Below are positions 55,178 to 60,154 of a DNA stretch of 64,000 bases, one piece after another. The position numbers and the translations under genes were made by a program. The notes under the pieces are model-generated. The model was not told the origin of the DNA and did no database searches. It saw only the letters and a program-made list of their open reading frames with translations. Within the stretch, counting starts at the first letter, position 1, and the number at the start of each line of letters is the position of its first letter. The DNA is from Escherichia coli (lineage in GTDB: Bacteria; Pseudomonadota; Gammaproteobacteria; Enterobacterales; Enterobacteriaceae): NCBI RefSeq assembly GCF_036507355.1, contig NZ_AP027877.1. One strand, written 5' to 3'.

Positions 55178-58100
55178 GTGCGCCTGATTATCACTTTTCT
55201 GATGGCCTGGTGCCTCAGTTGGGGGGCGTACGCCGCGACGGCCCCCGATAGCAAACAAATCACCCAGGAACTGGAGCAGGCAAAAGCGGCGAAACCCGCG
55301 CAGCCAGAAGTCATAGAGGCACTCCAGTCTGCCTTAAATGCGCTTGAGGAACGAAAAGGTTCCCTTGAGCGCATCAAGCAATATCAAGAAGTCATTGATA
55401 ATTATCCGAAACTCTCCGCTACTCTGCGCGCACAATTAAACAACATGCGTGACGAGCCGCGCAGCGTGTCGCCGGGGATGTCTACCGACGCGCTGAATCA
55501 GGAAATTCTCCAGGTCAGCAGTCAGTTGCTGGATAAAAGCCGTCAGGCCCAGCAAGAGCAGGAGCGCGCCCGCGAGATTGCCGATTCGCTGAATCAACTG
55601 CCGCAACAGCAAACCGACGCCCGCCGTCAGTTAAACGAGATCGAGCGCCGCCTGGGAACGCTTACCGGCAATACTCCGCTCAATCAGGCACAAAATTTCG
55701 CGTTGCAGTCTGACTCTGCACGTCTTAAGGCGCTCGTTGATGAACTGGAGCTGGCGCAGCTGTCTGCCAATAACCGCCAGGAATTAGCGCGCTTGCGCTC
55801 TGAGCTGGCTGAAAAAGAGAGCCAGCAACTGGATGCGTATTTGCAGGCCTTGCGTAATCAATTGAACAGCCAACGCCAGCTTGAGGCAGAGCGGGCGCTG
55901 GAAAGTACCGAATTACTAGCAGAAAACAGTGCCGATTTGCCGAAAGATATCGTCGCGCAATTCAAAATTAACCGCGAACTATCGGCGGCGCTGAATCAAC
56001 AGGCGCAGCGGATGGATCTCGTTGCCTCGCAACAGCGTCAGGCTGCCAGCCAGACGTTACAGGTCCGGCAGGCGTTGAATACGCTGCGTGAACAGTCGCA
56101 ATGGCTGGGATCGTCCAATCTGCTCGGTGAAGCGTTGCGGGCGCAGGTGGCACGGCTACCGGAAATGCCGAAACCACAACAGCTTGATACCGAAATGGCG
56201 CAGTTGCGTGTGCAACGGTTACGTTATGAGGATCTGCTTAATAAACAGCCGCTGCTACGGCAAATTCATCAGGCCGACGGTCAGCCGCTGACCGCTGAGC
56301 AAAACCGTATTCTGGAAGCACAGCTACGCACTCAGCGTGAGTTGCTGAACTCATTGTTGCAGGGTGGTGACACGCTACTGCTGGAACTGACCAAGCTGAA
56401 AGTCTCCAACGGGCAACTGGAAGATGCGCTGAAAGAAGTGAACGAAGCGACGCACCGCTATCTGTTCTGGACCTCTGACGTGCGCCCGATGACCATCGCC
56501 TGGCCGCTGGAAATCGCCCAGGATCTGCGTCGTCTCATTTCGCTGGACACCTTCAGTCAGTTGGGCAAAGCCAGTGTGATGATGCTGACCAGCAAAGAGA
56601 CGATTTTGCCGCTGTTTGGCGCGTTGATTCTGGTCGGTTGCAGTATTTACTCGCGCCGCTATTTCACCCGTTTTCTTGAACGTTCGGCGGCGAAAGTCGG
56701 CAAAGTGACTCAGGATCACTTCTGGCTGACGTTACGCACTCTTTTCTGGTCGATTCTCGTCGCGTCACCGCTGCCGGTGCTGTGGATGACGCTGGGTTAC
56801 GGCTTGCGCGAGGCGTGGCCTTATCCGCTGGCGGTCGCGATTGGCGATGGCGTAACGGCCACCGTGCCGCTGCTGTGGGTAGTGATGATTTGCGCTACTT
56901 TTGCCCGCCCGAACGGCTTGTTTATCGCTCATTTTGGCTGGCCGCGCGAACGTGTTTCTCGTGGGATGCGCTACTACCTGATGAGCATCGGGCTTATTGT
57001 GCCACTGATTATGGCGCTGATGATGTTCGATAATCTCGACGACCGCGAATTTTCCGGTTCGCTGGGACGGCTTTGCTTTATCCTCATTTGCGGTGCGCTG
57101 GCGGTGGTCACCCTCAGCCTGAAAAAGGCCGGGATCCCGCTGTATCTCAACAAAGAAGGCAGCGGCGACAATATTACCAACCATATGTTGTGGAACATGA
57201 TGATTGGCGCGCCACTGGTTGCCATTCTGGCGTCGGCGGTGGGTTATCTGGCAACGGCACAGGCGCTGTTAGCGAGGCTTGAAACCTCGGTTGCCATCTG
57301 GTTCCTGCTACTGGTGGTTTATCACGTTATCCGCCGCTGGATGCTGATCCAACGACGCAGGCTGGCGTTTGACCGGGCGAAGCATCGCCGGGCAGAGATG
57401 TTAGCGCAACGTGCGCGTGGCGAAGAGGAAGCACATCATCACAGTAGCCCGGAAGGGGCAATTGAAGTCGATGAAAGCGAAGTCGATCTCGATGCCATCA
57501 GTGCGCAATCCTTGCGGCTGGTGCGCTCAATTTTGATGTTGATCGCCCTGCTTTCGGTCATTGTGCTGTGGTCAGAAATCCATTCCGCTTTCGGCTTCCT
57601 CGAAAATATTTCGCTGTGGGATGTCACCTCCACGGTACAGGGCGTAGAAAGTCTGGAGCCGATAACCCTCGGTGCGGTGCTGATTGCCATTCTGGTGTTT
57701 ATCATCACCACGCAGCTGGTGCGCAACCTGCCCGCGCTGCTGGAACTGGCGATTTTGCAGCACCTGGATTTAACGCCGGGTACGGGTTACGCCATCACCA
57801 CCATCACCAAATATCTGCTGATGCTGATTGGCGGGCTGGTCGGCTTCTCAATGATTGGTATTGAGTGGTCGAAATTGCAGTGGCTGGTCGCCGCGCTCGG
57901 TGTTGGTCTCGGTTTTGGTTTGCAGGAAATTTTCGCCAACTTTATCTCTGGCCTGATCATCCTGTTCGAAAAACCGATTCGCATTGGCGATACGGTAACG
58001 ATCCGCGATCTTACTGGTAGTGTGACGAAAATTAACACCCGCGCCACCACCATCAGCGACTGGGACCGTAAAGAGATAATCGTGCCGAACAAGGCGTTTA

Positions 58101-58501
58101 TTACCGAGCAGTTTATTAACTGGTCGCTCTCTGACTCGGTTACGCGCGTGGTGTTGACGATTCCGGCCCCTGCCGATGCCAACAGTGAAGAAGTGACGGA
58201 AATCCTGCTCACCGCAGCGCGTCGCTGCTCGCTGGTGATCGACAACCCGGCACCGGAAGTCTTCCTGGTGGATCTGCAACAGGGGATTCAGATTTTCGAG
58301 CTGCGTATTTACGCCGCTGAGATGGGTCACCGTATGCCGCTACGCCATGAGATCCACCAGCTGATTCTGGCTGGCTTCCATGCTCACGGTATCGATATGC
58401 CATTCCCGCCCTTCCAGATGCGTCTGGAAAGCCTCAACGGTAAACAAACGGGGAGAACGCTGACGTCTGCGGGCAAAGGTCGTCAGGCGGGAAGTTTGTA
58501 A
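55178..58501 (+). CDS. mscM: Miniconductance mechanosensitive channel MscM (MscS family)
   Basis: ORF track 1107 aa; signal peptide, long coiled-coil periplasmic domain, multiple TM segments. Confidence 0.93.
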   Translation: MRLIITFLMAWCLSWGAYAATAPDSKQITQELEQAKAAKPAQPEVIEALQSALNALEERKGSLERIKQYQEVIDNYPKLSATLRAQLNNMRDEPRSVSPGMSTDALNQEILQVSSQLLDKSRQAQQEQERAREIADSLNQLPQQQTDARRQLNEIERRLGTLTGNTPLNQAQNFALQSDSARLKALVDELELAQLSANNRQELARLRSELAEKESQQLDAYLQALRNQLNSQRQLEAERALESTELLAENSADLPKDIVAQFKINRELSAALNQQAQRMDLVASQQRQAASQTLQVRQALNTLREQSQWLGSSNLLGEALRAQVARLPEMPKPQQLDTEMAQLRVQRLRYEDLLNKQPLLRQIHQADGQPLTAEQNRILEAQLRTQRELLNSLLQGGDTLLLELTKLKVSNGQLEDALKEVNEATHRYLFWTSDVRPMTIAWPLEIAQDLRRLISLDTFSQLGKASVMMLTSKETILPLFGALILVGCSIYSRRYFTRFLERSAAKVGKVTQDHFWLTLRTLFWSILVASPLPVLWMTLGYGLREAWPYPLAVAIGDGVTATVPLLWVVMICATFARPNGLFIAHFGWPRERVSRGMRYYLMSIGLIVPLIMALMMFDNLDDREFSGSLGRLCFILICGALAVVTLSLKKAGIPLYLNKEGSGDNITNHMLWNMMIGAPLVAILASAVGYLATAQALLARLETSVAIWFLLLVVYHVIRRWMLIQRRRLAFDRAKHRRAEMLAQRARGEEEAHHHSSPEGAIEVDESEVDLDAISAQSLRLVRSILMLIALLSVIVLWSEIHSAFGFLENISLWDVTSTVQGVESLEPITLGAVLIAILVFIITTQLVRNLPALLELAILQHLDLTPGTGYAITTITKYLLMLIGGLVGFSMIGIEWSKLQWLVAALGVGLGFGLQEIFANFISGLIILFEKPIRIGDTVTIRDLTGSVTKINTRATTISDWDRKEIIVPNKAFITEQFINWSLSDSVTRVVLTIPAPADANSEEVTEILLTAARRCSLVIDNPAPEVFLVDLQQGIQIFELRIYAAEMGHRMPLRHEIHQLILAGFHAHGIDMPFPPFQMRLESLNGKQTGRTLTSAGKGRQAGSL

Positions 58502-58608
58502 TGCATGAAGCTGCCAAATGATGTCAACGTGGCTCATTTAGCAGCTTAACATCATCTTCAGTTATCACCAGCCCCGGAGAATATCATCCATACGCATTAC
58601 TTCCTGAC

Positions 58609-58636
58609 AACTCATCGCCGGAGAGACGATGAGTTG
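58609..58636. terminator. Hairpin between convergent mscM and yjeM
   Basis: actcatcg-ccggagaga-cgatgagt inverted repeat. Confidence 0.45.
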
Positions 58637-58651
58637 CAGGATTTCATAGGA

Positions 58652-60154
58652 TCAGTCGAGAGCCAGTTCAGGTTTGTTCGCCATGCGACTGCAATAGTTC
58701 TGGTAAATCGCCATCGCTAACAGCGAGAAGAAGACAGGGCCGCCAATCATCCACAATGTGCTGTCCCAGTCTCCGGCTTCAACCACAGGCTGAATAATGG
58801 TGAAGACGTTCGCAAATGTCACCACCAGAACGACAACCACCGTCGCAATCATTGCCGACATACGCGTTTTGAAAATCACAAATGGTCTGTCGAGATCCTG
58901 ACGTGCTTTAAAGAATGGGAAAGCCAGCGCGAGGAACAGGTAAGGAAGCGTCATAGACACGTTCGCCATCAGCGTCAGCTTGTTAAAGAACGCCGATGCG
59001 GTACCGCCACCAAACGAAACCAGCAGGATGAAAACAGTAACCAACCCGCACTGCATCCACATGGCGATAGACGGCATCCCCATCGCATTCAGGCGCGTCA
59101 TCGGTTCCGGCCACAACGCTTTCGGCGTCCCCTGGATGATGGCTTTCAGCGGTGAATAGCAAAGCGTAAAGAACGCACCGGTATAGGCGAGGAACATCGA
59201 AAGTCCGGTAATACGCGCAAACCATACGCCCAGCGACAATGACGCTTCAGGTGACAAATGCAGTGCGTTACCCAGCGTCACCCCGAGGCTCTTCATCAGC
59301 ACATAGGTAATATTGCCAAGGTTAACGGAACCATTACTTAATACCTGCTGCCAGTTTGTGCTGACGCCCCATAAAAATATTGCCAGCGAATAACCGATTG
59401 AAATAACAATAGCGGCAAAAACAATACCTTTGGCAAAGTTCTTTTCTGGATTTTCCGTTTTATCGACCAGACCACCAACCGCTTCAATTCCGCCATAGGC
59501 AAAAATAGCAAATACCACAAACGATAGCATTGCCAGACCGGACTGATAACCCGGGTTCGGTGATGCAAGGAAATTAATATCCTGCGCGAAATGCCCACCA
59601 TTTAATAACAAAATAGTAATGCTTACTAACAGCAATACTAAATTCAGACACATTACTGCAATACCGCCCACCGCAGTAATGCGGGCAATTTTATTAATCC
59701 CCTTAGAAGCAACGACGGTGACCAGAATCATCCATGCCACTGCCAGCAGACCAACCACCTGCGTAGGCTCCAGTCCGGCAATACGCCAGTGCTGGGTCAT
59801 GTCGCTACCATAGAGGAATGTTGAGAACGGTACCCAAACTTTCGCGGAGGTACTCACCATCCAGATGATATAAGAGGAAAACCACATAAACGTACCAATG
59901 AAGGCAAAACGTGGTCCGACACTATTATTCATCCAGGAATAGATACCACCTTCTTCTTTGCGATAAGCAGCTCCCATTTCAGCCATCATTAAGGCGAATG
60001 GAATAAAGAATAACAATGCAGAAAATATATAAAAGGGAATCGCACTATAACCCATTAAGTAATAAGCCGATGGGCTATTGGCAAATCCAAATACGGAAGT
60101 AAAGATCATCAATATGAGTCCTATCAGACTCATCTTTTTTATCGTGTGAGGCAT
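58652..60154 (-). CDS. yjeM: APC-superfamily amino acid transporter
   Basis: ORF track 58652..60196 (GTG start); start taken at ATG 60152-60154 (MPHTIKKMSLIGLIL...), 500 aa. Confidence 0.88.
   Translation of the reverse strand: MPHTIKKMSLIGLILMIFTSVFGFANSPSAYYLMGYSAIPFYIFSALLFFIPFALMMAEMGAAYRKEEGGIYSWMNNSVGPRFAFIGTFMWFSSYIIWMVSTSAKVWVPFSTFLYGSDMTQHWRIAGLEPTQVVGLLAVAWMILVTVVASKGINKIARITAVGGIAVMCLNLVLLLVSITILLLNGGHFAQDINFLASPNPGYQSGLAMLSFVVFAIFAYGGIEAVGGLVDKTENPEKNFAKGIVFAAIVISIGYSLAIFLWGVSTNWQQVLSNGSVNLGNITYVLMKSLGVTLGNALHLSPEASLSLGVWFARITGLSMFLAYTGAFFTLCYSPLKAIIQGTPKALWPEPMTRLNAMGMPSIAMWMQCGLVTVFILLVSFGGGTASAFFNKLTLMANVSMTLPYLFLALAFPFFKARQDLDRPFVIFKTRMSAMIATVVVVLVVTFANVFTIIQPVVEAGDWDSTLWMIGGPVFFSLLAMAIYQNYCSRMANKPELALD

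Follow-up and report, generated by a model that had tools for sequence, protein, structure and literature searches.

The 150-bp mscM-yjeM spacer of an Escherichia coli strain, very probably a deletion scar within a long-standing yjeN-yjeO presence/absence polymorphism

The interval between mscM and yjeM in Escherichia coli K-12 (locus b4156-b4159) carries two small genes, yjeN and yjeO, which together form a sigma-E-induced unit (PMC2731931). yjeO is an accessory gene which has been associated with growth in milk (PMC11390585), and yjeN appears in a list of uncharacterised genes (PMC9976479). Functional work on yjeN, yjeO or DUF2645, the family to which YjeO belongs (E 3.8e-41), was not found in the literature, and no paper mentioning DUF2645 is present in the library searched. 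Small K-12-specific segments of this type were reportedly catalogued as 'K-islands' in the O157 genome comparisons of 2001.

In K-12-lineage genomes the distance from the mscM stop to the yjeM stop is 705 bp; strain O16:H48 PG20180050 (L001) was used as the reference for this lineage, and DH1 and MC1061 derivatives were also among the matches. Read from mscM, the interval consists of a 28-nt spacer with a GCCGGAT..ATCCGGC hairpin, yjeO (315 bp), yjeN (315 bp) and a 51-nt spacer with a stem-loop, after which yjeM follows. The yjeN and yjeO reading frames share 4 nt, and yjeM, yjeN and yjeO all lie on the yjeM strand. A first-pass annotation had placed yjeN and yjeO here in K-12 from the sequence of locus names, and both are found in exactly this interval. 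The window (the whole 64,000-nucleotide stretch of E. coli DNA that was analysed) has the same flanking genes in the same orientation and chromosomal position as K-12, and its yjeM-proximal hairpin is in the same place. However, the 705 bp with intact yjeN and yjeO in K-12 are represented in the window by 150 bp of another allele family, in which only a 5′ remnant of yjeN is present.

Both flanking genes of the window are intact in the ORF list. mscM (formerly yjeP; 55178-58501, plus strand) encodes 1107 aa, ends with the stop codon TAA at 58499-58501 and aligns end to end with the annotated mscM of E. coli genomes. yjeM (58652-60154, minus strand) encodes 500 aa and ends with TGA at 58654-58652; with 862.9 bits its product is above the cut-off of 400 for the NCBIfam YjeM equivalog, and Pfam AA_permease_2 is also matched. 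The two genes are convergent and the gap between them, 58502-58651, is 150 bp, exactly as the first-pass annotation had given it from the ends of mscM at 58501 and yjeM at 58652. The same annotation had counted a single hairpin in the gap; there are in fact two strong ones (58508-58547 and 58602-58641, referred to here as hairpins 1 and 2). A terminator scan of 58300-58900 returned 0 intrinsic terminator sites, Rfam gave no match at E<=1 on either strand of 58200-59000, and the promoter-like sites in the scanned region were two weak, low-scoring consensus matches (9/12). The scar has 2-3 private substitutions, with a best identity of 98.3% over 121 bp among complete E. coli genomes. Over 24 kb (36000-60000), none of 5,426 complete E. 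coli genomes exceeds ~99.1% identity to the window, which probably comes from a lineage outside that collection, such as Shigella or a rare E. coli lineage.

Two deep E. coli allele families, W (...SRMANKPELALD) and K (...SRVAKNPQWAVE), can be told apart by the final 10 codons of yjeM together with the hairpin that follows (window 58652-58690 and 58602-58641; L001 2760-2840). In the W family the YjeM C-terminus reads ...MANKPELALD and the hairpin CAACTCATCG/CGATGAGTTG, and in the K family these are ...VAKNPQWAVE and GCCCTATCGTC/GACGATAGGGC. The yjeM C-terminus in the window is W-type (...SRMANKPELALD).

The gap contains what is left of the start of yjeN. The motif AGGAAG (58600-58605, minus strand), read from the sequence as the former yjeN ribosome-binding site, lies 8 nt upstream of an ATG at 58591-58589, a placement which is the same in intact yjeN alleles. 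The remnant itself (58541-58591, minus strand) has ~17 codons that can be aligned, extending to ~58536 against the Salmonella allele, and the ~50 nt after the ATG are ~70% identical to the yjeN 5′ end, amounting to ~17-19 decayed codons. In shuffling controls the local-alignment score was reached by 0/2000 shuffles for yjeN of N66, K-12, L005 and S. enterica and by 2/2000 for that of E. albertii, and there is a 17-nt exact match between the remnant and the yjeN of L005. A frameshift reduces the remnant to an 8-codon mini-ORF, MDDILRGW, with a stop at codon 9 that ends at 58565; with one frameshift allowed, it reads MDDILRG-VITEDDVKLLNE against MDDASRDPVITEDEIRELQF in YjeN. In the haplotype alignment the short form and intact W alleles run collinear from yjeM across hairpin 2 and into the yjeN start. 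Collinear residual homology with a broken frame is what marks a gene remnant, and the scar has both.

Hairpin 2 (58602-58641, minus strand) corresponds to the yjeM-yjeN intercistronic stem-loop and has a perfect 10-bp core (58608-58617 / 58627-58636) and a folding dG of -27.2 kcal/mol on the minus strand (z -7.4). N66, L005 and E. albertii share this stem-loop at 98-100% identity, and it has come down unaltered from the intact operon. In E. albertii this identity of the W-type hairpin is seen even though the flanking genes differ by ~9%. Its consensus has 12 pairs, 5 of which are changed on both sides with pairing kept between the K and W families, as in a conserved RNA stem-loop with compensatory changes; the 9 sequences compared amount to about two allele families, so these are few independent events. 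A stable hairpin directly behind the yjeM stop occurs in most yjeM-bearing species, with differing sequence.

Hairpin 1 (58508-58547) is specific to the short form. It has 14-bp arms (13/14 paired) and a 12-nt loop, and its dG is -20.6 kcal/mol on the plus strand and -23.1 kcal/mol on the minus strand (z -3.6 and -4.2). The hairpin is formed because its left arm (58501-58521) is an inverted near-copy of 58534-58555: against the reverse complement of the latter it has 19 matches in 23 columns, a score equalled in 1/5000 shuffles. In blastn-short searches the left arm matched only the short-form loci L004 and L006, and the whole of 58502-58547, searched against long-form alleles and 80 outgroup loci, had matches only in other short forms. 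The distal ~36-50 nt of the gap, on the mscM side, are without significant similarity to yjeN or yjeO, which leaves the exact breakpoints uncertain.

The junction is a strain-variable site, as the first-pass annotation had proposed. Among 5,426 complete E. coli genomes, the short scar (same junction, at least 95% identity) is found in 2,394, or ~44%, a proportion which reflects sequencing bias and not natural frequency, and 3,030 have a match of any kind to the K-12 yjeN-yjeO interval and contain yjeO; together these classes make up 5,424 genomes, a split of ~44:56. Coverage of the K-12 interval reaches 80% or more in 2,152 genomes, which gives the approximate number with both yjeN and yjeO, in two deep allele families; the K-type yjeN interior is present in 1,885 and the W-type interior (at least 95% identity) in 268. 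Around 878 genomes have yjeO without most of yjeN, a figure obtained by subtraction and not by direct query for the junction, and ~48 of these are in an 80-90% identity band which includes a rare form described below. The flanks are 95-99% identical in E. coli strains with and without the yjeN-yjeO segment, the pattern expected of a presence/absence polymorphism. The difference in length is smaller than the roughly 1 kb first assumed, being 555 bp relative to K-12 and 568 bp relative to the closest intact allele.

Five forms of the locus can be distinguished in E. coli. Form A is the K-type intact locus of K-12. Form B, the W-type intact locus with the yjeM 3′ end and hairpin as in the window, occurs in N66, the type strain ATCC 11775, and O18 and APEC strains. 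Form C is K-type with yjeN deleted and yjeO kept (ST131 EC958, strain 042), and form D, the W-type short locus, is that of the window, O157:H7, O55:H7, O145:H28, B7A and clone D i2. The O157:H7 junction has the same structure as the window scar and a near-identical sequence, and in annotated short-form genomes, O157:H7 included, yjeM comes straight after mscM. The rare form E has the order yjeM, truncated yjeO, IS630-family pseudogene, 237-aa lysozyme-like gene, second, full DUF2645 gene and mscM.

Form C resembles the window in that a loss at the mscM-yjeM locus has left a remnant, but it is an independent deletion of ~263 bp in the K family, which removed yjeN only and kept yjeO and the terminator hairpin. 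Its deletion joint lies at a TTCC microhomology (EC958 L002 2448-2544 versus L001 2495-2775). The EC958/042-type locus also has a separate 12-nt deletion nearby and retains the last ~19 yjeN codons upstream of yjeO. Both yjeO and yjeN have a 16-nt motif, ATAGCGCAnAnnAAAC, at their 3′ ends, at a distance of 326 nt from each other (L003 2148-2163 and 2474-2489; L001 2146-2161 and 2472-2487), where it encodes ..LRYQ.. and ..MRYS..; this may be coincidence or may reflect past recombination between cassettes.

Outgroups were collected with the MscM C-terminus, taking one genome per species, which gave 80 Enterobacteriaceae loci. Both yjeN and yjeO accompany yjeM in E. albertii (flanks ~91% identical to the window) and in L005, a divergent lineage deposited as E. 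coli (flanks ~94%). A second such lineage, E69, also deposited as E. coli (flanks 92.9%), has the same short scar at 89% identity, with hairpin 1 and with derived remnant substitutions common to E69 and the E. coli short form. Salmonella enterica has yjeM and yjeN but no yjeO, many genomes having yjeN intact (L085-L087), and in the type strain of S. enterica subsp. arizonae (flanks ~82%) yjeN is frameshifted (L020 6355-6659). In Intestinirhabdus alba a 3′ fragment of yjeO (aa 72-103) lies in a 231-bp gap (L065 6229-6324). The Intestinirhabdus and arizonae cases are independent decay at this locus in other genera.

We consider it very probable that the 150-bp spacer is a deletion scar within a long-standing presence/absence polymorphism, and the sequence evidence points to the short form having been derived by loss rather than being ancestral. 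Loss is favoured because the yjeN ribosome-binding site, the ATG and ~17-19 codons are retained, because both genes are present in E. albertii and in a divergent lineage, and because there are no flanking repeats or mobile ends. The converse, that the short junction is ancestral and that K-12 and its relatives gained yjeN-yjeO as an islet, could draw on the mscM-epmA interval being empty in ~32 of the 80 Enterobacteriaceae species and holding only yjeM in ~27, and on DUF2645 cassettes being clearly mobile, since they occur at various chromosomal sites, in a prophage and beside IS630. Yet an empty site would hold nothing of yjeN, which also occupies the same place in Salmonella, and in the K-12 and N66 long forms yjeN-yjeO has neither flanking direct or inverted repeats nor a target-site duplication; long forms also lack a transposase, except in the rare SX48-type variant. 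Nothing therefore suggests insertion of yjeN-yjeO by a mobile element, and a gain, already largely refuted by the yjeN remnant, is very improbable. Thus, where the first-pass annotation had left open whether this strain lacks an islet or K-12 gained one, the loss stands and the gain does not. Most genera of the family do lack yjeN and yjeO, so the genes were gained at some earlier time. That the junction might be an assembly artefact of the window can practically be dismissed, given the same junction at 95% identity or above in 2,394 complete genomes. As to the stem at the joint, it might be proposed that hairpin 1 is a selected stand-in for a lost bidirectional terminator of mscM and yjeO, or another functional RNA element, as its stem is stable (dG -20 to -23 kcal/mol, z ~-4) and it is placed right behind the mscM stop codon, is kept in E69 and is invariant in five E. 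coli strains of differing backgrounds. This seems unlikely, since the terminator scan and Rfam returned nothing, the two arm mismatches in E69 are uncompensated, and invariance within E. coli is as expected for young neutral sequence. Neither hairpin is followed by a U-tract on either strand, so hairpin 1 is not a canonical intrinsic terminator.

A related question is where the deletion took place. The scars of O157:H7, clone D i2, ST2747, MIN6 and XH990 have the same junction with a few substitutions, and this shared structure in five strains of differing backgrounds indicates a single origin. The deletion either predates the split between E. coli and the E69 lineage or crossed lineages by recombination. 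The decay of the short allele could have happened in a different Escherichia lineage, with homologous recombination then bringing the allele into E. coli, or the transfer could have run in the reverse direction, and to this we give some credence, short of an even chance. Identity to intact W alleles switches sharply from ~70% (58541-58605) to 98-100% (58606-58651), the remnant being ~70% identical to any extant yjeN 5′ end; E69 has the same scar although its flanks differ by 7%; and the scar is present in strains labelled with differing pathotypes and serotypes (O157:H7, clone D i2, B7A). On the other hand, the ~11% by which the E69 and E. coli scars differ slightly exceeds the difference between the flanks, which fits vertical descent and neutral drift equally well, and the analysis turned up no donor lineage carrying an intermediate form. 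Decay in situ and import of an already decayed allele cannot be separated by the contrast between ~70% and 98-100% identity, and because identity switches from ~70% to ~99% at hairpin 2, the age of the deletion is not readable from the flanks. Both this age and any selective reason for the persistence of the scar are matters that we infer.

Under the reading as a deletion, the ancestral Escherichia order would have been mscM on one strand facing yjeO, yjeN and yjeM, in that sequence, on the other. The three minus-strand genes would have formed a co-oriented unit with the 4-nt yjeN/yjeO overlap and the stem-loop between yjeM and yjeN. One event in the W family would then have deleted ~0.6 kb, removing yjeN from about codon 18-20 onwards, the whole of yjeO and the 30-nt spacer between mscM and yjeO, including the GCCGGAT...ATCCGGC hairpin. 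Left behind would have been hairpin 2, the ribosome-binding site and ATG of yjeN, ~17-19 yjeN codons, since decayed, and ~36 nt at the junction. The leftmost 21 nt of this junction would be an inverted copy of the adjacent remnant, giving hairpin 1, and this one 21-nt inverted repeat suggests that the joint may have been made by a fold-back or template-switch event.

Across the 80 Enterobacteriaceae species, the interval between mscM and epmA is a hot spot for small cassettes. It is empty (44-163 bp) in the ~32 species mentioned above and has yjeM only in a further ~27, while a DUF2645 gene is present in ~10, mostly after a translationally coupled ORF of ~237 aa which is decayed or absent in a few. 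Two Citrobacter species have yjeM together with the ~237-aa/DUF2645 pair, one further species has a 4.7-kb sugar-utilisation insert, and Intestinirhabdus has the yjeO 3′ fragment. One Enterobacter species (Enterobacter sp. BIGb0383, L061 6226-7196) has an antitoxin gene with a SocA/Panacea domain (Pfam E 3.9e-25) and, as its partner, an ORF of 133 aa; here the hot spot is occupied by a conflict-type cassette of another kind. The rare form E of E. coli (SX48, L088 801-4776; L089-L092), found in ~48 complete genomes and accompanied in SX48 by IS3, looks like a new effector-immunity cassette displacing an old immunity gene.

YjeN, one of the two missing proteins, has 104 aa and homologues in Escherichia and Salmonella only, and no relatives were found in Pfam, NCBIfam, PADLOC or PDB sequences; its AF2 model (pLDDT 57.5) is too poor for a fold search. 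The idea that YjeN is a decayed piece of the lysozyme-like gene described below was rejected (BLASTP E 2.4, hhalign probability 0.4%). YjeO has hydrophobic segments at ~5-24 and 56-73 and a third which is aromatic-rich. The loop between segments one and two is acidic (net charge -6), and the second segment is followed by RKKR.

Outside Escherichia, DUF2645 genes lie directly behind a gene for a ~235-aa protein, overlapping it or 0-3 nt apart, in all loci that have that gene. An immunity gene placed immediately downstream of its effector gene and co-oriented with it has this same arrangement. There are 132 homologues of the ~235-aa protein in Enterobacterales, uniform in length, and the protein has no hydrophobic signal segment. 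Its AF2 model (pLDDT 82.8) predicts a lysozyme/SLT fold, which would be a toxic enzymatic one, and a Glu in an AVxEVGG motif is nearly invariant. The pair adjoins hcp in 3/8 contexts at or away from the mscM site (Dickeya, Xenorhabdus and Pectobacterium) and hcp is absent from the others; in Dickeya the order is hcp, then the effector candidate, then DUF2645. Elsewhere the pair is a moron in a P2-like prophage (Yersinia) or sits at unrelated sites (Photorhabdus, Winslowiella). Together, this analysis suggests that DUF2645 and the ~235-aa lysozyme-like protein could be a T6SS effector-immunity pair, although the pair may act in lysis or secretion instead.

It is tempting, if still speculative, to extend this to E. 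coli. yjeO may be an orphan immunity gene against Hcp/T6SS-linked ~235-aa lysozyme-like effectors which circulate in Enterobacterales and repeatedly land downstream of mscM, with the scar representing its loss and the whole being a long-lived polymorphism, possibly under balancing selection. Such selection would set the cost of the gene against protection from effector-armed neighbours. If yjeO does confer immunity, susceptibility to one class of peptidoglycan-degrading effectors would not be the same in the 44% of sequenced E. coli with the scar as in K-12-like strains.

For the window itself the scar is of little consequence, as mscM and yjeM are both intact, and the short/long difference is an ordinary, essentially known accessory-gene polymorphism which is evident from public annotation. 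With the direction now clear, as a loss, and the scar common to Escherichia lineages, the junction can serve as a practical neutral marker and illustrates the persistence of a presence/absence polymorphism.

The described systems closest to the proposed role of yjeO are the T6SS islets, and the locus differs from these in several respects. The window itself has no counterpart of a T6SS islet such as that of the Pantoea hcp island or Tse3-Tsi3 (PDB 4luq). YjeO is a polytopic membrane protein, whereas the immunity protein of T6SS pairs is usually soluble and periplasmic, and in K-12 yjeO is preceded by the unrelated yjeN. The DUF2645 pattern does, in turn, resemble that of the Pantoea hcp island, where Hcp-linked T6SS effector-immunity islets are found with displaced orphan immunity genes (PMC9796082).
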